DNA of 64,000 nt from an uncultured Gammaproteobacteria bacterium (GCA_964571225.1 CAZNBB010000002.1:7421-71420), one strand, 5' to 3'. Shown: positions 2,406 through 54,022, counted from the stretch's first letter. Made by a program: numbers and translations. The notes: a model not told the origin generated them from the sequence alone.

Positions 2406-3872
2406 ATGAATGTATTATTCGCCACCAGCGAAGCGCACCCGCTTGTGAAGACCGGCGGCCTGGCTGACGTTTGCGGAAGTCTGCCCCACGCCCTGGGCGA
2501 AATGGGGCAGGATGTACGCCTGGTGCTGCCGGCGTATCCGCAGGCTCGCGAGCGGGCCTGGGACGTACGCACCGTCGCCACCTTGACGCTGCCCTATGTG
2601 CCGGAGCCGGTCACCGTGCTGGAAGGACGATTGCCCGATTCGTCCGTGCCCGTGTATCTGGTGGACTACCCGCTCTACTTCGAGCGCCCCGGCAATCCGT
2701 ACGTCACTCCGGACGGGGTGGACTGGCCCGACAATGCGCAGCGCTTTGCCTGCTTTGCGCGCGCAGCGGTGGCAATCGCGCTGGATCGCGCGGGCCTGGA
2801 CTGGCGCGCCGATGTTGTCCACTGCCACGATTGGCAAAGCGGTCTGGTACCGGCGCTGCTGAGCGAGGAACACCGCCGTCCTGCAACGGTATTCACCATC
2901 CACAACCTCTCGTACCAGGGATTGTTCGACTGGGCCACCTTCCAGTCCCTCAACCTGCCATACAAATGGTGGGTCATGGACGGCCTGGAGTTCTTTTCCC
3001 ACATGTCCTTCATCAAAGGTGGACTGGTGTTTTCCGACTGGCTGACCACCGTCAGCCCCACCTACGCCCGGGAAATCGCTACGCCTGAATTCGGTTGCGG
3101 TCTACAGGGCCTGCTGAGCCATCGGGCGGACCGTCTGGAAGGCATACTGAACGGCGTGGACTACGACGTCTGGGACCCGGCCCACGATGCGCTGATCGCC
3201 CGGCCCTACGATGCCGGCTCCCTGGAAGGCAAAGCCGCCAACAAGACCGAGTTGCAGAAGCGCTTCGATCTGCCCGTCAACGCAAACACGCCTCTGCTGG
3301 CCCATGTGGGACGGCTGGTCGAGCAGAAGGGCATCGATCTGCTGCTTGGTATCCTGCCGGAGCTGGCCCGGCGCGACATGCAGCTCGTACTGCTGGGCAG
3401 CGGGCAGAAGGCGCTGGAGGATGCGGTGCGCTCGGCCCGCAAAGAGTATCCTCAGCGCATCGGCGTCATGATCGGCTACGACGAATCGCTGGCTCACCTG
3501 GTAGAGGCGGGTGCCGATGGTTTTCTCATGCCCTCACGTTTCGAGCCGTGCGGACTGAACCAGATCTACAGCCTGCGCTACGGCACTGCACCGATCGTCC
3601 GGCGCACCGGGGGGCTGGCCGACACCGTGGTCGACGCCGACGCTTTCAATCTGCAGGAAGGGCTGGCCACCGGTTTCGTGTTCGACGATGCGACACCGCA
3701 AGCCCTGCTGGCCGCTATCGACCGCGCCCTGATCCTGCATGGCAACGCCGATGCGTGGCGACGGCTGATCACCGCCGGTATGGCTCAGGATTTCAGCTGG
3801 ACGCGAAGTGCCGAACGCTACCTGGACCTGTATCGCCGGGCGCTGGAATCCGCCGCGGTCACGTCCGCTTAG
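2406..3872 (+). CDS. glgA: Glycogen synthase (ADP-glucose transglucosylase)
   Basis: MNVLFATSEAHPLVKTGGLADV... (KTGGL motif), 489 aa from the internal ATG at 2406. The ORF-track start at 2214 is an upstream extension. Confidence 0.9.
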   Translation: MNVLFATSEAHPLVKTGGLADVCGSLPHALGEMGQDVRLVLPAYPQARERAWDVRTVATLTLPYVPEPVTVLEGRLPDSSVPVYLVDYPLYFERPGNPYVTPDGVDWPDNAQRFACFARAAVAIALDRAGLDWRADVVHCHDWQSGLVPALLSEEHRRPATVFTIHNLSYQGLFDWATFQSLNLPYKWWVMDGLEFFSHMSFIKGGLVFSDWLTTVSPTYAREIATPEFGCGLQGLLSHRADRLEGILNGVDYDVWDPAHDALIARPYDAGSLEGKAANKTELQKRFDLPVNANTPLLAHVGRLVEQKGIDLLLGILPELARRDMQLVLLGSGQKALEDAVRSARKEYPQRIGVMIGYDESLAHLVEAGADGFLMPSRFEPCGLNQIYSLRYGTAPIVRRTGGLADTVVDADAFNLQEGLATGFVFDDATPQALLAAIDRALILHGNADAWRRLITAGMAQDFSWTRSAERYLDLYRRALESAAVTSA

Positions 3873-4021
3873 CCGGGAATTCACGCTCCTTCATGGCAGC
3901 ATCGGTGCCTGCCATCCATTTCCCGCCAGGCGCGCGACCGACGACCGGCGCTGCCACCGAAATTCGAGGCCCAACCGGGCTTTGATATCAGCCCCCTAGG
4001 CAAGCGGGCACCCGGACGGGT

Positions 4022-4074: not shown

Positions 4075-6930
4075 ATGTCTATGTCACCGAAGCGCAAAGA
4101 AAACCTGGGAGTCGAGCCGCCGCCGCGGGATAAGGAACTGCGGGCCAGGGTGCGATTGTTCGGCAACCTGCTCGGGAATGTGTTGCGGGACCAGGCCGGC
4201 GGCAAGGTCCTCGCGGCCGTCGAAGCACTGCGCAAGGGGTATATCCGGCTGCGCCAGGAGGAAAGCCCCCGCCTGCGCCTGCGGTTGGCCACCATGATCG
4301 AACGTCTCGAACCCGATGTTCTTACCCATGTGGTGCGGGCTTTCAACGTCTACTTCAGCTTGGTGAACATCGCCGAGGAAGCTTTCCAGCATCGTCAGCG
4401 CCGACGTGCCATCCGCTCCGGCGGTCCCCTGTGGCGAGGCTCCTTCGACGACACACTGCGGGAGTTCAACACCGAGGACATGAATCGCGAGCAGCTGCAG
4501 AGTCTGCTCGACCAGACCTGCTACGTGCCGGTCTTCACGGCCCACCCCACAGAATCCAAACGCCGCACCATTATGGAGGCACTGCGGCGCATTTTCGTGA
4601 CCAGCGAGCAGTTGTACGACGCGCGTCTCAACAAGGAAGAGCGCGAACAGGTCATCGACGATCTGCGCACGCAGATCCAGATTCTCTGGAAGACCGACGA
4701 AGTCCGCATCCACCGCCCGCGGGTGCGGGACGAAATCCGCAACGGCCTGTTCTATTTTCGCGAAAGTCTGTTTACCGCCGTGCCGGCCACCTATCGCAAC
4801 CTGGAAAAAGCGATGGCGCGCATTTACGGCGCCGGCCCAGACGGAGCCTCGGCCATCAAGGTGCCCAGCATGCTGCGCTTCGGCTCCTGGATCGGAGGCG
4901 ATCGCGACGGCAACCCGAACGTCAAACCGGAAACCACAGTGCTCGCACTGCGCCTGCAGATGCGCGAAGCGCTGTGCGAATACCTGCGTCGCACCGAGGC
5001 GCTGGGTCATCTGCTGACCCACTCGATCTTGCTGTGCCAGCCATCCGACGCCCTGCTGGCCAGCATCCAGGCCGACGAGGAACGTTTCCCGAAGGCCTTC
5101 GGAGACCATCCGCGACGCTTCAGCCACGAGCCCTATCGACGCAAGCTCTACGTCATGCGCTACCGGCTGCGCCAGAACCTGCGCGAAGTGATCCGGCTGC
5201 TGGACGAGCAGGACAATCCTGCCCAGGGCAGCACCGACCACCGTTACCGATCGGAAGCGGAACTGCTGGAAGAGCTCTACCTGATCCGCGACTCGCTGCG
5301 CCAGCATGGCGACGAAAAGGTCGCCGACCGGGAGCTGAAAGACCTGATCCGGCTGGTGGAGACCTTCGGCTTCTATCTCATGCAACTGGATATCCGCCAG
5401 GAATCCACCCGCCATACCGAGGCGGTTGCCGAGTTGCTTTCTCGTTTTCCCGGCGCACTGGACTATCAGGCCATGGACGAAGACGAGCGCGTGCGGGCGC
5501 TTGCCGACGCGATTGCAGCCCAGGAGACCCCGGACCTGGATCGCAGTTCGCTGGACACTCGCACCCGCGAGACCCTGGAAGTCTTCGATGTCATGCGGCG
5601 CATGCGCGAGGATGTCAGCCCGCGCGCATTCGGCACCTACGTCATATCCATGACCCACAGCGCAAGTCACGTGCTGGAAGTGATGTTCCTGGCACGTCTC
5701 GCCGGACTGGTGGGAAAGACCGCCGACGGCTGGTCGTGCCAGATCCAGGTCAGCCCGTTGTTCGAGACCATTGAGGACCTCGCCCATGTCGAGCAGGTAC
5801 TGACGCGGCTGCTCGACACCCCCGTGTACCGGGCCCTGCTGGCCGCATCGGGCAACTTGCAGGAAGTCATGCTCGGCTATTCGGATTCGTGCAAGGACGG
5901 CGGCATTCTGGCCTCGGCCTGGAACCTGTACGAGGCCCAGAAGAAGATCATCAAGATCACCGAGGAGCGCGGCATTGACTGCCGCCTGTTCCACGGCCGC
6001 GGCGGCACCATCGGGCGAGGCGGCGGACCGACCCACGAGTCCATCCTCGCGCAGCCCCCCGGGACGGTGCACGGTCAGATCAAGTTCACCGAGCAGGGCG
6101 AAGTGCTGTCGTACAAGTACAGCAATGCGGAAACGGCCATCTATGAGCTGACCATGGGCCTGACCGGGCTGCTCAAGGCCAGTCGCAGCATCGTGCAGCC
6201 GGCGGGACCGGACCGTAAGGACTACCTGGGCATCATGGACGAGCTTGCGCGGCTGGGCGAAGAGGCCTATCGCGACCTCACCGACCGCACCGAGGGCTTC
6301 CTGGATTACTTCTACGAAGTGGCGCCGGTCAACGAAATCGCGCTGCTGAACATCGGCTCGCGGCCTTCCCATCGGGCTCGCGCCGACCGTTCGAAATCCT
6401 CCATCCGGGCCATACCCTGGGTGTTCGGCTGGGCCCAATCACGCCACACGCTGCCGGCCTGGTACGGGCTGGGCTACGCCCTCGAAACCTGGCGCGGCAA
6501 CAGTCCCGAACGGCTGGCGAAGCTGCAGACCATGTACCGGGAATGGCCGTTCTTCCGCGCTCTGCTAAGCAACACGCAGATGTCGCTTTTCAAGGCCGAG
6601 ATGAACACCGCGTGGGAATACGCCAGCACCCTGGCCAAGGACGCCGAGTCCGCCGGACAGATATACCGACGGATCCGAGACGAATATCAGCGCACGCTGA
6701 CCCAGGTATTGAACGTAGCCCACACGCAGGTGCTGCTGGAGGAAAATCCGGCCCTGTTTCTGTCGCTGTCACGGCGCAATCCCTACCTGGACCCGCTCAA
6801 CCACATTCAACTGGTACTGCTCAAGCGTTACCGGGATACGGTGGTACCGGAGGAGCAGCGCGAACACTGGCGCGATCCCTTGCTGCGCTCGATCAACGCC
6901 ATCGCCGGCGGGCAGCGCAATACCGGCTGA
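4075..6930 (+). CDS. ppc: Phosphoenolpyruvate carboxylase
   Basis: 951 aa. VPVFTAHPTE motif, FHGRGGTIGRGGGP active-site loop, and C-terminal ...GQRNTG. Start at MSMSPKRKEN. Confidence 0.93.
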   Translation: MSMSPKRKENLGVEPPPRDKELRARVRLFGNLLGNVLRDQAGGKVLAAVEALRKGYIRLRQEESPRLRLRLATMIERLEPDVLTHVVRAFNVYFSLVNIAEEAFQHRQRRRAIRSGGPLWRGSFDDTLREFNTEDMNREQLQSLLDQTCYVPVFTAHPTESKRRTIMEALRRIFVTSEQLYDARLNKEEREQVIDDLRTQIQILWKTDEVRIHRPRVRDEIRNGLFYFRESLFTAVPATYRNLEKAMARIYGAGPDGASAIKVPSMLRFGSWIGGDRDGNPNVKPETTVLALRLQMREALCEYLRRTEALGHLLTHSILLCQPSDALLASIQADEERFPKAFGDHPRRFSHEPYRRKLYVMRYRLRQNLREVIRLLDEQDNPAQGSTDHRYRSEAELLEELYLIRDSLRQHGDEKVADRELKDLIRLVETFGFYLMQLDIRQESTRHTEAVAELLSRFPGALDYQAMDEDERVRALADAIAAQETPDLDRSSLDTRTRETLEVFDVMRRMREDVSPRAFGTYVISMTHSASHVLEVMFLARLAGLVGKTADGWSCQIQVSPLFETIEDLAHVEQVLTRLLDTPVYRALLAASGNLQEVMLGYSDSCKDGGILASAWNLYEAQKKIIKITEERGIDCRLFHGRGGTIGRGGGPTHESILAQPPGTVHGQIKFTEQGEVLSYKYSNAETAIYELTMGLTGLLKASRSIVQPAGPDRKDYLGIMDELARLGEEAYRDLTDRTEGFLDYFYEVAPVNEIALLNIGSRPSHRARADRSKSSIRAIPWVFGWAQSRHTLPAWYGLGYALETWRGNSPERLAKLQTMYREWPFFRALLSNTQMSLFKAEMNTAWEYASTLAKDAESAGQIYRRIRDEYQRTLTQVLNVAHTQVLLEENPALFLSLSRRNPYLDPLNHIQLVLLKRYRDTVVPEEQREHWRDPLLRSINAIAGGQRNTG

Positions 6931-11752: not shown

Positions 11753-11828
11753 GCTCCCATCGTCTAGCGGTCCAGGACGTCGCCCTCTCACGGCGAAAAC
11801 CGGGGTTCGATTCCCCGTGGGAGCGCCA
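11753..11828 (+). tRNA. tRNA-Glu (anticodon CUC)
   Basis: A 76-nt cloverleaf: GCTCCCA acceptor stem, anticodon loop CTCTCAC, GGTTCGATTCC T-arm and a 3' GCCA. Close to the E. coli tRNA-Glu scaffold. Confidence 0.85.
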
Positions 11829-43147: not shown

Positions 43148-43454
43148 GAAAACCCACGAGTTGGAGGAGAGACGATCAATGAAGCTCCCGATGTTGAGAA
43201 GCTTCGACAGTGTTAGAGCAGTATCCGTGCCAACTGCGTATTTGCCTCCATTCAACAAGTTAGCATTTGCCCCCGTGTCGGCATTCCGGCGGCGCGCACC
43301 ATCGTGACGCACCGCGCACCGGGGCAGTCCACAGCCGCCCGGCGGCGGCACTGAACGCCTCCCGGCCGCGTTCGGCACAATGTGGCCCGCCGCGTGCCGA
43401 GCAGCGCGGACCGGGACCGCCCTGGCGAAGACGGTGGCGCTGCAGTCTGCGGAA

Positions 43455-48153: not shown

Positions 48154-49362
48154 CTACTGAATTCCGCCGGGTGCCGCACCCTTGCCGGCAAGAAACACAT
48201 CCGTCTGGCGCACATTGTCCCCGTTCATCACGGTGTGGATATCCACGGTTCCCCCAAGAGCGCCCGCGTTCTTGCCGAAGAAGGCGCCCTGCACCTTGCC
48301 GGTCAGGCCGTCGCTCAGCTTGTTCGACACCACATTCGCTCCGGAAATGGTACCGGACGCGGTGAATGCCACCTGCCCCACCAGATAGTCGCCGTTGCTG
48401 AGGTGCTCGATATGGGCGCCGGAGGTATCCAGGGCGCCTGTGGAGTGGCCCCAGGAGCCGTTCCAGGTACCGTGGCCGAAATCCACCGTGATCGCCACCG
48501 GGGTGCCGTTTGCCAGCATGCTGCCTCCGTAGCTGGCCTGCACATCGCCGGCCTGCAGCTTGTCCAAGTCGAGTTGGGAGGTCGTGATGCCGGTCACGAA
48601 CTGGCCGGACCCGCCGGTGTGGTCGGGGGTGCGGTTGTAGATGATGTTGTCCACGGTCGCAAGCACGGAATAGGCGACATAACGAAGTGTGCCGTCGGAC
48701 CAGGTCCCGGCCACCACATCGGGGTTCGCCGCATAGGGCAGTACACCGCTGACCTCGGATTTGTGGTCGAATCGTTCCGCCGGCGTCGCGGGCCCCAGCG
48801 CCCGATGAAAAGTGGTCTGGGTGGCACTGCCCACCATGGCATTCGCGGCCGTCTGGCCGACCGACAGGTTCTGCACCGACACCTGGGGGTACGCGCTGTC
48901 GCCGGGGTTGGTCGGGGTCACGACATAGGAGGCGCTCTGCCCTTCGGCGCCGTTGGTGGCGGCCGCCACCAAGGCCGCCACGGTGGTCTCGAAGCTGGCC
49001 GGCACCGGCCCGCCGTGATAGCCCTGCGCCCCGGTCTCGGTCTCGCTGTTTGCGGCCACATAGCCCGCGTCGCGCGCGTAAGTGGCAAAGCCGCAAGCCG
49101 CTCCGGCGACGCAGGGGCCCTGCACCGTGATGGTCGGCTTCTGGACCTGGGGCGTGTTCTCGCTGTTGCGCGGCGTGTTCTGTGTGGAAAGGTTCAGCAG
49201 CGCCACCGGGTGACCGCCTGCGGCGGGAGCCAGCACCGCCCAAGGCCCCCAGGAGTAGACGGAATCGTCATCGTGGGCCTTGTGCGTGGTGTTGGCGGCC
49301 ACCGGGCCGGCAGCCAGAGCAAAGGCGATGCCGGCTGCCAGCACGCTCCTGGAACGGGTCAT
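48154..49362 (-). CDS. Secreted protein with a TbpB/HpuA-type (lipoprotein-5-like) C-terminal beta-barrel; putative Slam-dependent cargo, hemophore-like
   Basis: Signal peptide MTRSRSVLAAGIAFALAAGPVAA with no lipobox Cys. The C-terminus matches the TbpB-fold signature block by block: ASYGGS, AITVDFGHGTWNG, YLVGQVAFTASGTISGANVV, GKVQGAFFGKNAGALGGTV, DVFLAGKG. SD GGAGGAG before the ATG at 49362. Confidence 0.65.
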   Translation of the reverse strand: MTRSRSVLAAGIAFALAAGPVAANTTHKAHDDDSVYSWGPWAVLAPAAGGHPVALLNLSTQNTPRNSENTPQVQKPTITVQGPCVAGAACGFATYARDAGYVAANSETETGAQGYHGGPVPASFETTVAALVAAATNGAEGQSASYVVTPTNPGDSAYPQVSVQNLSVGQTAANAMVGSATQTTFHRALGPATPAERFDHKSEVSGVLPYAANPDVVAGTWSDGTLRYVAYSVLATVDNIIYNRTPDHTGGSGQFVTGITTSQLDLDKLQAGDVQASYGGSMLANGTPVAITVDFGHGTWNGSWGHSTGALDTSGAHIEHLSNGDYLVGQVAFTASGTISGANVVSNKLSDGLTGKVQGAFFGKNAGALGGTVDIHTVMNGDNVRQTDVFLAGKGAAPGGIQ

Positions 49363-49651
49363 GTTTGTCTCCTCCGAGGGATCGCCGGCCACCTACGCCG
49401 GCAGGCTTTCGACTGCTTAAGCAATCGCTGTGCCACAGCTTTTATGGGTAATAAATACAGCCAGTTAGCTATATAAACAAACGCACCGCCTTCGGCATTG
49501 TAAATTAATTCGACTCGCCTGCCGGAGCAGGAATGGAGCAACAGACTGAAAAGTCCGGAAAATACTTAGCTTGCTCGTGATCGCATGCAATGTTGCGCCG
49601 GATATCGATGTAAATAATTCCGACGAGCGCCGTCCCATCCCTTTGCTTGGA

Positions 49652-50980
49652 TTAGAAATTCCGTGACAGGCTCAGGCTTACCTGGTGCCGTCGGTAGCGA
49701 TACACCGCATCATTGGAGCGATTGTCCGTGTAACGGAAGACACCGTTGATGGACCACTTCTCCAGTCGCCCGGTGGTGAATCGATGCTTGAATCCGATGG
49801 TCGCCTCGCGTTCCTGCTCGTCGCGCACCACACCCAGGGTGTCGACGCCGTCGTATTTGAGATCGTTGTAGTACAGACGGCCATAGATCGTACCGCCGCT
49901 CCAGGCATGCACGAACGCGGCCAGGTAACCGCCCGGACCGGTGTAGCCGAACTGATTGTCGTCGGCCGAGAAGTCGTACCAGTCCACGCCGCCCTGGATC
50001 GCCACCTTACGCTCGTTGAAATAATGGGCGTAGGAGACGCCCGCGCGTCGATACAGCCCGTCGCGCCCGCCGTTGCCCCCCTGAATGGTGGGTCTGTCGT
50101 CCCGGTAGCTGCGCTTGGACAGGGTACCGTCCAAGGACACCTCCGCATCCTTGAACTGCCAGGTGACGCGCGGATTGAGGGAGCTGAACAACGCCAGGCC
50201 ATGCCCCCCGAGCCATACATAGTCGAGTTGAACCGGCAGCGCGGCACGCCAGTGACGCAGCACCACCCACGCCGGCCCGGTACTGGCGCTCAGTACGCTG
50301 AGATCGAAGGCGTGTTGCTGGAAGTAGGAACGCTGATAGGCGTCCAGTTCACTCTGCCAGAGGAACTGTCCCACCTGCTGCCCGGCGCGAAAGCGCTTGC
50401 CGGGTTGATAGCGATGCACAACGCCGGCGGAGAGCACCACTGCGGTGTCGCTCTTGGGCAGCGAACTGGGCAGCACCGTCAGAAGCTGGCCCTGATAGGG
50501 CACAATGTCGCTGATGGGACCGATGTTCACATTGGAGTCGTACATGGTGCCGACCGAAACGAACGGCGTGAACCGGCTGGGTACGTCCAGCTTCTTCTGG
50601 TCCTCGTTGACCTGGGCCAGGAACGCCAGAATGCTCACCCGCACATTGGGCGGCACATGGGGATCCTTGAGCACCCTTTCGGCCGCCTTGCGTGCCTTGT
50701 CGTAATCGAGTGCACGGTAATAGGCGACGGCCAGTTCCAGACGTGCCCGATGCAGGTCGGGGGCATTGCTCAGGATCTGCTGGAACGCCTCGATGGCGGA
50801 AAACAGCTGGTCGCTGCGCAATGCCTTCATGCCTTTCTCGAACAGGATCTGATTGGGATCCTGGCTGGCGTCTGTCGGCTCGGCGGCTGCCGCCTGCCAG
50901 GATGCCAGCCCGATCAGCAAGGCCACGAACGCAGGGATCACGCGGCTGCGCACAGCCAGAATTTTTCTTATTGGTGACAT
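49652..50980 (-). CDS. Outer-membrane protein with an N-terminal TPR region plus a C-terminal beta-barrel: Slam-like (surface lipoprotein assembly modulator, DUF560-type architecture)
   Basis: 442 aa from the ATG at 50980: signal peptide MSPIRKILAVRSRVIPAFVALLIGLASWQAAAA, a TPR-like helical region (AYYRALDYDKARKAAERVL), then about 300 aa of alternating beta-strand pattern ending ...VSLSLSRNF with a terminal Phe. The 748-aa track ORF is an artefactual fusion with the antisense of the BTLCP gene. Confidence 0.6.
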   Translation of the reverse strand: MSPIRKILAVRSRVIPAFVALLIGLASWQAAAAEPTDASQDPNQILFEKGMKALRSDQLFSAIEAFQQILSNAPDLHRARLELAVAYYRALDYDKARKAAERVLKDPHVPPNVRVSILAFLAQVNEDQKKLDVPSRFTPFVSVGTMYDSNVNIGPISDIVPYQGQLLTVLPSSLPKSDTAVVLSAGVVHRYQPGKRFRAGQQVGQFLWQSELDAYQRSYFQQHAFDLSVLSASTGPAWVVLRHWRAALPVQLDYVWLGGHGLALFSSLNPRVTWQFKDAEVSLDGTLSKRSYRDDRPTIQGGNGGRDGLYRRAGVSYAHYFNERKVAIQGGVDWYDFSADDNQFGYTGPGGYLAAFVHAWSGGTIYGRLYYNDLKYDGVDTLGVVRDEQEREATIGFKHRFTTGRLEKWSINGVFRYTDNRSNDAVYRYRRHQVSLSLSRNF

Positions 50981-51205: not shown

Positions 51206-51859
51206 ATGACACGTCGACTCCTTCTGCTGCTGTCGCTGTTGATCGGTTGTCTGGTCCCCCTGACCGGTACCGCCCGCGCTTCCGCCCAACCCGACACCCT
51301 GTTCGGCTACCGGGGAACCGAAGAAACCGGCGTACGGGTCTTCCATCAATGGGTCAGGGTTCTGGAACGTCATATCCGCGATGACGTGCCGGAAGGCGAC
51401 TGCAGCGAACGACGCCTCAACACCTGTCATTTGCGGCACTGGTACGCTTTTCTGCGCTCGATCCGCAAGCTTCCCAAACTGGAACAGATCCGGCGGGTCA
51501 ACACCTTCGCGAACAACGTCAGGTATGTGCTGGACATCGACAACTACGGCGTTCCGGACTACTGGGCGGACGCCAAGGAATTTCTCTACAATGGCGGCGA
51601 CTGCGAGGACTACGCCATCACCAAGCTGTTCTCCCTGCGATGGCTGGGTTTTCCTCCCAGTTCGGTGCGTCTGGTGGTGCTTCAGGACACCAATCTGCGC
51701 GTAGCCCATGCGGTGCTCGCCGTCTATCTGCATGGCAAGACGTACATCCTGGACAACCAGACGCAGCAGGTCGTGACGGACACGCAGATCGTGCATTACG
51801 TACCGGTGTATGCGATCAACGAGAACCACTGGTGGCTGTATACGCCGCCACCCTCCTGA
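51206..51859 (+). CDS. Periplasmic transglutaminase-like cysteine proteinase (BTLCP, LapG-like)
   Basis: Signal peptide MTRRLLLLLSLLIGCLVPLTGTARA and a catalytic triad context GGDCEDYAITK (Cys), AHAVLAVY (His), ILDNQ (Asp), matching PF06035-type proteins. Confidence 0.75.
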   Translation: MTRRLLLLLSLLIGCLVPLTGTARASAQPDTLFGYRGTEETGVRVFHQWVRVLERHIRDDVPEGDCSERRLNTCHLRHWYAFLRSIRKLPKLEQIRRVNTFANNVRYVLDIDNYGVPDYWADAKEFLYNGGDCEDYAITKLFSLRWLGFPPSSVRLVVLQDTNLRVAHAVLAVYLHGKTYILDNQTQQVVTDTQIVHYVPVYAINENHWWLYTPPPS

Positions 51860-51931: not shown

Positions 51932-54022
51932 ATGAGTCGCGGCCTTCGCAACCCCGCTGTGGCGGGCGGCGCAATCCTGCTGCTGCTGGTCGCCGCCGGC
52001 GTGGCCGCCGTACTCTGGTACGTCTCACTGGAACAGCAACGGGACCTGCATGACTGGCAGATCCGTCTCGGCCTGATCGCCGACAGCCGCGCTGACGCCG
52101 TCGACCGCTGGGTGACTACACAGTTCGACGCACTGCAGGAACTGGCGGACAACGCCTCCCTGCAGATGTACGCCACCCAGTTGGAGTTGCAACCCAAGCT
52201 GCAGAGCGACAACGTCGAGCCCGCCCAGCTCAGCTACCTGCGCAGCCTGATCATCGCCACCGCCCAGCGCAGGGGCTTCATCGACCCAAGCCCGCTCAGT
52301 ACCGTCATCCGGGCCAACGTACCCGGTCACAGCGACGCCGGACTGGCCCTGCTCGATCCGGGCGGCAAGCTGCTGGTGGCCACACCCGGCATGCCCGCGC
52401 TGGACAAGGGCTACCGGGCCGCCGCCCGGCGGGCCGTGGAGACCGGGCAGCGAACAGTTCGCGACATTCATCTGAACGCGGCCGGAACCCCGGTCATGGG
52501 CTTCGTCGTCCCGGTCTACGCCGTACAGGGAGCACAACAGGGCCGCACCGCCCATGCGATCGCTGTGATCCTCGGGGTGAAGAACGTACAAAGCAGCCTC
52601 TATCCGCTGATCCGCAGTCACAACCTGCTCACGGACCAGGACCAGACTCTGCTGGTGCGCCGCGAGGGCAATTCGGTGGTCTATCTGAGTCCGCTGGAGG
52701 ACAGCAGCCGTCCCACGTCGCGGCGGCTCGCCCTGAATAACCCGGACCTGGCGGCGGCGTTTGCGCTCCAGCACCCGGGCGCGTTCGCGCGACTGCACAA
52801 CTATCAGGGTACGGACGTACTGATGACCAGCCGCCAGCTGAGCGCGGCCCCGTGGGTGCTGGTCCAGGAAGCCGGCGCCGCGCCCGCTCTGAAGGAATCG
52901 AACGATCACCGGCGCTTTCTGCTGACCGCCCTGCTGCTGACCATCTTTCTGGTCGCCGCCAGCCTGGTGGCGGCCTGGCGTCACGGCACCAGTGTGCGCG
53001 CTCTGACCATGGCGGAACACCTGCGTACGACGTCCCGCGAGTTGGAAGTACGCACCGCGCTGCTGCATGCGATCACCGACAACGTCACCGACCACATCTA
53101 TCTCGCGGACCCGCAGCAGCATTTCATATTCGCCAACGGCTCCCTGGCACAGGTCACCGGATTGGCCGGCGGGGACTTCGCCGGCAAATCCCTCACCAGC
53201 GTGCTGGGGCCAGAGACAGCGAAGAGACTGTCCGATTTTGCGGACCAGGCGCTGCAGGACAATCATCCGGTGGTGGTTACCCGCTCGTTGGATCTGGGCG
53301 ACGGCAGCCGGGTGTTCCACTGCGCTTTCATTCCACTGGCACACGTGAACGGCCTGGAGCGTACCGTACTGACCGTGCTGCACGACATCACGGATCTTCA
53401 GCAGGCGCAGATCAAACGCTCGGCGCTGCTGCGCCAGTTGATCATCACCCTGGTACGGGTCGTGGACATGCACGATCCCTATTCCGCCAATCACTCGGCG
53501 CGCATGGCGGAGGTGGCGCTGGCGGTGGGACGGTCCATGCTGCTGAGCCAGACGGAGCTTGAGACCCTGGAACTGGCAGCGCAGCTGGCGAATCTTGGAA
53601 AGATCTTCGTTCCCAAGGAAATACTCACCAAGACCGGCGCTCTCACCGAGGCCGACCAGGAGGTCCTCAAGAAGCATGTCCAGTACACACTGGACATGCT
53701 CTCCGGAATCGACTTCGACGGACCGGTACTGGAAACCATCGCCCAGAAGCAGGAGCACTGCGATGGCAGCGGCTATCCGAAGGGACTGATTGGGGACGAG
53801 ATGCTGCTGACCGCGAAGATACTGGCCGTGGCCAACGCCTTCGTCGCCATGGTCAGCCCGCGCGCCTATCGCGACGCCGTGTCGGTGGACGCAGCCCTGG
53901 ACCGGCTGTTGGCCGACAGTCACAGCCGCTACGATCGCCATGTGGTCGCCGCGCTGTTCCACGTGGCCGAGAACCGGTCCGACTGGTCAACATGGCCGAA
54001 GATACAGCCGCCGGAAGCCTAG
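51932..54022 (+). CDS. Membrane-bound HD-GYP phosphodiesterase with a large periplasmic sensor domain and a cytoplasmic PAS-like region
   Basis: TM1 (AILLLLVAAGVAAVLWYV), a periplasmic domain of about 300 aa, TM2 (FLLTALLLTIFLVAASLVAAW), a PAS-like segment, then HD...HCDGSGYPKGL (HD-GYP). 696 aa. Confidence 0.8.
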   Translation: MSRGLRNPAVAGGAILLLLVAAGVAAVLWYVSLEQQRDLHDWQIRLGLIADSRADAVDRWVTTQFDALQELADNASLQMYATQLELQPKLQSDNVEPAQLSYLRSLIIATAQRRGFIDPSPLSTVIRANVPGHSDAGLALLDPGGKLLVATPGMPALDKGYRAAARRAVETGQRTVRDIHLNAAGTPVMGFVVPVYAVQGAQQGRTAHAIAVILGVKNVQSSLYPLIRSHNLLTDQDQTLLVRREGNSVVYLSPLEDSSRPTSRRLALNNPDLAAAFALQHPGAFARLHNYQGTDVLMTSRQLSAAPWVLVQEAGAAPALKESNDHRRFLLTALLLTIFLVAASLVAAWRHGTSVRALTMAEHLRTTSRELEVRTALLHAITDNVTDHIYLADPQQHFIFANGSLAQVTGLAGGDFAGKSLTSVLGPETAKRLSDFADQALQDNHPVVVTRSLDLGDGSRVFHCAFIPLAHVNGLERTVLTVLHDITDLQQAQIKRSALLRQLIITLVRVVDMHDPYSANHSARMAEVALAVGRSMLLSQTELETLELAAQLANLGKIFVPKEILTKTGALTEADQEVLKKHVQYTLDMLSGIDFDGPVLETIAQKQEHCDGSGYPKGLIGDEMLLTAKILAVANAFVAMVSPRAYRDAVSVDAALDRLLADSHSRYDRHVVAALFHVAENRSDWSTWPKIQPPEA

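Follow-up and report, generated by a model that had tools for sequence, protein, structure and literature searches.

A predicted sigma-54 promoter region with two conserved upstream sites between a Slam-like gene and its candidate cargo gene in an uncultured gammaproteobacterium

The 289-bp spacer that separates a Slam-like gene from its putative cargo gene is, with a probability of roughly 0.8, an enhancer-dependent sigma-54 (RpoN) promoter region that would drive the cargo gene independently of the Slam gene. This reading is drawn from comparison of the spacer with its orthologs and with the window (the whole stretch of DNA analysed, 64 kb). A candidate sigma-54 element and two upstream 17-bp sites lie in the spacer. 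What the DNA shows directly is the motifs themselves, that they occur nowhere else in the window, and that their order, orientation and spacing are conserved at ten diverged loci. An earlier, sequence-only reading had placed the cargo promoter and regulator sites here, which the conserved sigma-54-like element and the two sites support; it had also suggested comparing the spacer across related genomes, and phylogenetic footprints were found when this was done. Its boundaries for the spacer were exact, as the cargo ATG occupies 49362-49360 (minus strand) and the Slam stop codon 49654-49652, leaving 289 bp between them; the upstream gene product ends in ...LSLSRNF* at that stop. The spacer and its flanking genes are as follows:

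48154 to 49362, minus strand: cargo gene, 402 aa, with a Sec signal peptide, a disordered N-terminus with PAAG and a TbpB/fHbp-like body
49363 to 49651, minus strand: Slam-cargo intergenic spacer, 289 bp, 50.5% GC, the lowest-GC 289-bp stretch in the 64-kb window
49652 to 50980, minus strand: Slam/T11SS-like outer-membrane protein gene, 442 aa, with N-terminal TPR and a DUF560/SlipAM barrel

The identification of the two flanking genes as Slam-like and as a TbpB-fold cargo held up, through matches to TPR_Slam, SlipAM and TbpB_B_D and through Foldseek. Pfam matches of the Slam gene were weak (SlipAM: 22.2 bits, cut-off 22; TPR_Slam: 28.2 bits, below the cut-off of 35.2), and the cargo matched TbpB_B_D at 27 bits (cut-off 26) and the NCBIfam model slam_lipo ("Slam-dependent surface lipoprotein") at a sub-threshold E = 5e-7. 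The cargo signal peptide is of the Sec type and has no lipobox cysteine, so the protein is predicted to be non-lipidated. Searches of PDB sequences with both proteins returned only TPR matches and a marginal HpuA at E = 0.4, and structure prediction was therefore used. The AlphaFold (AF2) model of the cargo, built on a 31-sequence alignment, had a mean pLDDT of 76.5, with residues 78-397 confident and residues 1-77 disordered; its best Foldseek matches in the PDB were TbpB, fHbp, NHBA and hemophilin (probability 1.0), all of them known Slam/T11SS cargos. Sequence and model together support a Slam/T11SS and cargo pair, with secretion of the cargo predicted.

For comparison, orthologous loci were taken with cargo identities of 96% (L004), 86% (L010, a fragment), 81% (L005), 49% (L007) and 41% (L018), together with distant loci at ∼34% (L020) and roughly 26 to 31% (L021-L025). 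Ten diverged loci, spanning cargo identities from 96% to about 26%, share the promoter and site architecture. The promoter and leader features of the window are:

49419 to 49436, minus strand: candidate sigma-54 promoter block GTGGCACAGCGATTGCTT, invariant in the ortholog spacer alignment
49435 to 49421, minus strand: candidate sigma-54 core TGGCACAGCGATTGC, TGGCAC-N5-TTGC, with the -24 GG at 49434-49433 and the -12 GC at 49422-49421
49407 to 49411, minus strand: predicted transcription start, ∼49409, placed 12 nt downstream of the -12 C
49383 to 49403, minus strand: putative 5'UTR stem-loop CUGCCGGC-GUAGGUG-GCCGGCG, of low confidence
49369 to 49375, minus strand: Shine-Dalgarno sequence GGAGGAG of the cargo gene as read from the sequence, kept in L004, L005, L010 and L013

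The sequence TGGCACAGCGATTGCT (49435 to 49420) matches the sigma-54 consensus at 10 of 10 positions, its GG and GC lying exactly 10 bp apart and its -12 C 59 nt 5' of the cargo ATG. Over both strands of the window (128 kb) there is one exact TGGCA[CT]-N5-TTGC, and it is this cargo-strand copy in the spacer. When the spacers of the window, L004, L005 and L007 were aligned, GTGGCACAGCGATTGCTT stood out as the sole sharply conserved block amid divergence, and shuffled spacers of the window, L005 and L007 attained the sigma-54 score in 0.02 to 0.06% of trials. A cargo-strand GG-N10-GC element (8 to 10 of 10 positions) is found 36 to 72 nt before the ATG in 10 of the 11 loci with a long spacer; over ten loci, shuffles equalled the observed score at a frequency of 0.0002 to 0.037 per locus. 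The predicted 5'UTR is ∼47 nt long in the window and its equivalent measures 44 to 60 nt in 9 of 10 loci (24 nt in L021). In four lineages (the window, L005, L007 and L018), nt 7-27 of the predicted transcript could fold into a GC-rich hairpin, with stems that differ in sequence; one compensatory pair was seen, the folding energy was no better than that of shuffles (z about 0.3), and the hairpin could be a 5' stabilising stem-loop.

Three further sequence features were recorded. A sigma-54-like sequence with one mismatch, TGGCACGGATACTGC, lies at 43218-43232 (minus strand), in the gap where prfC and a GlmU-like NTP-transferase gene converge, and is probably a chance occurrence because no gene lies downstream in that orientation. 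Within the spacer, a 10-bp palindrome, TGCTTAAGCA, covers -12 to +1 (49410-49427), and a 15-nt inverted repeat (I1; 49392-49406 and 49517-49531; 87% complementary, arms 110 nt apart) encloses the proximal site and the promoter. Since neither could be made out in L005 when the alignment was inspected, both were taken to be chance.

Upstream of the promoter lie two copies of a conserved site and an AT-rich stretch:

49609 to 49625, minus strand: distal site CGTCGGAATTATTTACA, centred at -208, 110 bp from the proximal site; its reverse complement is ATGTAAATAATTCC
49499 to 49515, minus strand: proximal site AGTCGAATTAATTTACA, centred at -98; its reverse complement is TGTAAATTAATTCG
49436 to 49499, minus strand: AT-rich stretch of ∼65 bp, ∼41% GC, from the proximal site to the -24 element; it holds TTTTATGGGTAATAAATACAG, TATATAAACAAAC and a sigma-70 candidate

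The sites emerged from an unbiased enumeration of every 4-mer/gap/4-mer pattern, in which GTCG-N7-TTAC, in gene orientation, was the only pattern that three diverged spacers each contained two or more times; the full 17-bp motif was defined from these same data. GTCG-N7-TTAC occurs twice in the 64-kb window, both times in the spacer and in the same orientation (49624 to 49610 and 49514 to 49500), and the only direct-repeat family that a search for repeats returned consists of these two sites at their 110-bp distance. From 19 distinct sites at ten loci the consensus is tGTCGrAAwwAtTTACa, a 17-bp, 6-N5-6 pseudo-dyad that always has one orientation. Relative to the predicted start, site centres fall at -97 to -123 for the proximal site (10 of 10 loci) and at -208 to -232 for the distal site; the spacing is 108 to 115 bp in nine loci (exactly 110 in four), the exception being L007, which has three sites at intervals of 74 and 100 bp. 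The window and L004 agree fully (100%) in the proximal site and promoter and at 95% (20/21) of the distal site, as against 81% of the inter-site DNA and 90 to 94% of third codon positions, a pattern that is a classical phylogenetic footprint. The two sites, at about -98 and -208, are candidate enhancer sites whose motif fits no activator consensus tested: comparison with the NtrC, NifA, TyrR, PhhR, GlrR, FleQ and CbrB consensus sequences in six to eight spacers gave none that consistently beat shuffles. The IHF consensus WATCAANNNNTTR was perfect in L005 only, where it lies between the two sites; it had one mismatch in L007, L018 and L021 and two in the window, which is chance level.

From this arrangement we infer that sigma-54 is used, that transcription starts where predicted, that the protein bound at the sites is an enhancer-binding protein and that it acts by looping. 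In such a mechanism, sigma-54 RNA polymerase would form a closed complex on TGGCAC-N5-TTGC, and an AAA+ enhancer-binding protein encoded outside the window would bind tGTCGrAAwwAtTTACa at both upstream positions. The DNA from the proximal site to the -24 element, low in GC and unconstrained in sequence, would permit looping, possibly with IHF in some lineages; the activator would contact the holoenzyme through the loop and its ATP hydrolysis would open the promoter. A spacing of 110 bp is about 10.5 helical turns, which would place the two sites on the same face of the DNA. The transcript would begin near 49409, with a short 5'UTR bearing the hairpin and then GGAGGAG. Slam itself would have a promoter of its own in the divergent region, and since it would be expressed separately, cargo would appear only with the activator's signal. 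No convincing sigma-54 or site motif was found in the divergent regions between the LapG-like and Slam genes at seven loci, and a six-frame search of the 64-kb window (GAFTGA, Walker A, RpoN box) returned neither rpoN nor a gene for an enhancer-binding protein; the presence of both rpoN and the activator in this gammaproteobacterium is assumed.

A different role for the repeats is conceivable, although we consider it unlikely: the sigma-54 promoter may be real while the 17-bp sites are operators of another regulator, for example of the LysR type with a T-N11-A or TGT-N11-ACA site, and the true enhancer lies elsewhere or is unrecognised. Such a regulator would modulate or repress the promoter, or read-through from Slam. 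The asymmetry and constant orientation of the sites, and a distal site that in L025 borders on or runs into the end of the Slam gene, would suit an operator, whereas the position of the proximal site is a classical enhancer distance and the 17-bp, 6-N5-6 layout is that of NtrC-type sites. For enhancers, a pair of sites separated by 110 bp is unusual; on the other hand, a sigma-54 promoter requires an enhancer-binding protein, and apart from the promoter only these sites are conserved in the spacer. Sites of LysR proteins are usually found at sigma-70 promoters, at about -65/-35. In the literature searched, TGT-N11-ACA was reported only for the LysR-family regulator PsrA (PMC8754645), and a regulator that is not an enhancer-binding protein consequently stays a rival.

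We regard as very improbable that a sigma-70 promoter under Fur, Zur or Mur control drives the cargo gene, as in iron-regulated Slam cargo operons. The idea draws on characterised Slam/T11SS cargos serving mostly in the acquisition of iron, heme or metals (PMC8560813, PMC12282271) and on the AT-rich, AATAAT-like elements of the spacer, but these elements form the inner part of the two conserved 17-bp sites. The sigma-70 candidate named in the sequence-only reading, TTGTTT-N17-TATTTA, does occur on the minus strand; its proposed role did not hold, as the hexamers match at 3/6 and 3/6 positions (6/12), pass no scan and are unconserved, the equivalent of the -35 hexamer being absent in L005 and L007. 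A metalloregulator target was likewise not borne out, the best Fur and Zur matches equalling those in shuffled sequence: the Fur 19-mer GATAATGATAATCATTATC was matched with 7 to 9 mismatches, its 7-1-7 form with 5 and Zur with 10 to 11, and no Fur 19-mer lay within 3 mismatches anywhere in the window. The earlier reading, which could not make out a convincing canonical Fur box by eye, agrees with these consensus scans. Scans of the spacer for sigma-70 promoters and terminators gave no sigma-70 site and three weak terminator-like hairpins, none of them conserved and one overlapping the distal site; for a Slam terminator, the first 76 to 105 nt after the stop codon folded no better than shuffles in five loci.

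The composition of the spacer had been put at ∼40% GC, which is too low for the whole (50.5%) and is closer to the values of its parts: a core of ∼100 bp (49421-49520) has 43% GC, and the ∼65 bp from the proximal site to the -24 element about 40 to 41%. The dip relative to the ∼65% GC of the window does exceed chance. Stretches of 289 bp average 64.8% GC (sd 3.5), the spacer is the sole place where they fall below 52% (minimum of 48.1% at 49403), and a rough gene call of the window shows no intergenic gap of 60 bp or more with a lower GC; orthologous spacers are also low (40 to 58% against 55 to 66% for their loci). All four AT runs quoted earlier exist in the spacer, two of them (TGTAAATTAATTCG and ATGTAAATAATTCC) as the reverse complements of the two 17-bp sites and two (TTTTATGGGTAATAAATACAG and TATATAAACAAAC) within the AT-rich stretch. 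In 9 of 10 loci that stretch has 23 to 42% GC, while its sequence is hardly conserved; composition kept without sequence, in DNA that would have to loop, fits a bendability or architectural role for the low-GC segment between enhancer and sigma-54 promoter.

That the AT-richness instead marks a junction left by horizontal transfer, or a target of an H-NS/MvaT-like xenogeneic silencer with no specific promoter architecture, appears highly improbable. The spacer is indeed the lowest-GC stretch of the window and the Slam gene, at 61.6% GC, is slightly under its neighbours, but the low-GC part is only ∼100 bp long and falls exactly between conserved elements, and xenogeneic silencing is not needed to explain the composition. 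A horizontally acquired junction, as first suggested, is contradicted by a gene order kept in relatives down to 26 to 49% cargo identity, low-GC marine relatives included, and by GC3 values close to native (cargo 0.83, Slam 0.78, housekeeping neighbours 0.86); blastn gave no match to plasmids. That the spacer codes for a small protein, or for an RNA such as a small RNA or riboswitch-like leader, is scarcely credible. A hairpin recurring at the same place in the predicted 5'UTR and minus-strand ORFs of 57 and 60 aa might speak for it, but outside the three conserved blocks the spacer diverges faster than third codon positions and with indels, which is incompatible with a conserved ORF or long structured RNA, folding energies are no better than those of shuffles, and no Rfam family reaches its gathering score there (best: narK RNA, 17.5 bits against 43.2; the only Rfam match in the window is a tRNA at 11753-11825, outside the spacer).

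The sigma-54 reading is also consistent with how the long spacer is distributed among relatives. The exact cargo protein is present in MAGs and metagenome contigs, and a scan of a genome collection with the Slam alignment gave two loci. Across the orthologous loci the order HD-GYP, LapG-like protease, Slam, spacer, cargo is kept, usually with leuA next; the protease/Slam/cargo module also occurs in L017, L018, L020, L024 and L025, with different downstream genes. Among the 11 loci with a long spacer, L020 (34% cargo identity) is the single exception: its 400-bp spacer (3601-4000; 39% GC) has neither a sigma-54 element nor 17-bp sites, so its regulation must differ. In distant low-GC relatives the gap between Slam and cargo is only 13 to 57 bp (L015, 1-190; L016, 2250-2261; L017, 2913-2964) and neither a sigma-54 element nor 17-bp sites were found in these three loci; Slam and cargo are presumably co-transcribed there. 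As the elements are missing where the gap is short, the long spacer goes with an internal promoter, and by this sequence comparison the long, putative sigma-54 spacer is clade-specific.

Some loci differ in gene content around the cargo. The L020 cargo (525 aa) has a long Pro-rich linker of PVxxPQ repeats, in a genome of 44.5% GC. In the marine relative L017 a second, larger TbpB_B_D protein (626 aa; 4842-6722, plus strand) is encoded downstream of the first cargo, which suggests one Slam with multiple cargos. A gene of ∼180 to 200 aa without a Pfam match directly follows the cargo in L021 (3511-4122), L023 (2649-3194) and L025 (4048-4644) and is absent from the window; in those three loci it possibly shares the predicted sigma-54 transcript of the cargo.

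Divergently from the Slam gene, two genes point to a possible fate of the cargo after secretion:

51206 to 51859, plus strand: divergent neighbour, gene of a LapG-family cysteine protease (Peptidase_C93, 61 bits; NCBIfam CystProtLapG, E = 4e-25)
51932 to 54022, plus strand: gene of a membrane protein with PAS and HD-GYP and two hydrophobic segments, after the protease gene

The GDCEDYA / HAV / LDN catalytic pattern of the LapG-like protease is apparently intact. An N-terminal S-x3-WG-x-W...PAAG motif (DSVYxWGxW...PAAG; cargo residues 33-49) is invariant in the cargo family (n = 31) and falls in the segment that AlphaFold leaves disordered. LapG has been shown by experiment to cleave at PAAG in Vibrio cholerae FrhA (PMC6890996). 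As in the LapADG system described there, a LapG-family protease and a c-di-GMP-related HD-GYP membrane protein lie beside a surface or secreted PAAG protein; unlike in LapADG, the candidate substrate here would be a Sec/T11SS cargo rather than a T1SS RTX adhesin, and in place of a LapD (GGDEF-EAL) gene there is only a PAS/HD-GYP protein with a periplasmic domain. By this analogy, PAAG in the cargo, the adjoining LapG-like gene and the validated FrhA motif make a LapG-type release switch on a T11SS cargo plausible, and it is apparently undescribed, as nothing connecting LapG with T11SS or Slam was found in the literature searched. A fuller scheme, to which we give a low likelihood, is that the spacer is the input of an undescribed display and release system, in which a sigma-54-activated cargo is retained at the surface by its N-terminus and released by the LapG-like protease under HD-GYP control. 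In that scheme the activator would possibly be a c-di-GMP-responsive, FleQ/VpsR-like protein recognising tGTCGrAAwwAtTTACa; the cargo would be held at the cell surface via its DSVYxWGxW...PAAG segment, and the neighbouring protease, controlled by the periplasmic-sensor HD-GYP protein, would free it. If true, a Lap-type c-di-GMP retention switch would have been transplanted onto a type 11 secretion system.

Taken as a sigma-54 promoter region, the spacer may be set beside known systems of two kinds. Multi-site sigma-54 promoters include glnAp2 (NtrC), nifH (NifA, TGT-N10-ACA) and glmY (GlrR-QseF), the last with TGTC-N10-GACA at three sites from about -100 to -240 plus IHF. The spacer resembles enhancer-dependent sigma-54 promoters in its TGGCAC-N5-TTGC element with GG and GC 10 bp apart, its site at about -100 with a further one upstream, its AT-rich and presumably bendable intervening DNA and its short predicted leader, and it shares the 17-bp, 6-N5-6 geometry of NtrC sites. 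Its half-sites, TGTCGr and TTTACa, differ from those of NtrC, NifA, TyrR/PhhR, GlrR, FleQ and CbrB, its TGT...ACA being separated by N11 against N10 (NifA) and N12 (TyrR), and unlike those of the systems named its sites are asymmetric, in a single orientation and ∼110 bp apart.

Known Slam/T11SS cargos have been studied in pathogens and are mostly under iron/Fur control, often co-transcribed with partner genes. As at the Fur-regulated Slam/T11SS loci (tbpBA, lbpBA, hpuAB and the hemO-locus hphA/hemophilin), a Slam/DUF560 gene here adjoins a cargo of TbpB/fHbp fold with a predicted C-terminal 8-stranded barrel. Unlike those loci, this one has no Fur box and its cargo has its own predicted sigma-54 promoter in a spacer of ∼290 bp; the cargo is predicted to be non-lipidated and bears the N-terminal DSVYxWGxW...PAAG motif, and the hosts are uncultured environmental Gammaproteobacteria. 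The searched literature held no link of RpoN or sigma-54 to Slam, T11SS or DUF560, and the words "sigma", "RpoN" and "promoter" are absent from a survey of T11SS cargos (PMC12282271). If our reading is right, a clade of environmental Gammaproteobacteria would uncouple cargo from secretion pore by means of a sigma-54 promoter, and the new 17-bp site would serve as DNA bait for the activator, and hence for the inducing signal of an uncharacterised T11SS cargo family, and as a motif with which to find the rest of the regulon in uncultured genomes. The regulatory model is precise enough to be tested by point mutations at GG/GC and at both sites. By every sequence criterion testable here, the spacer belongs to the class of enhancer-dependent sigma-54 promoters, and what is new is the motif and the context; as the promoter is of a standard kind, the advance is contextual rather than conceptual.
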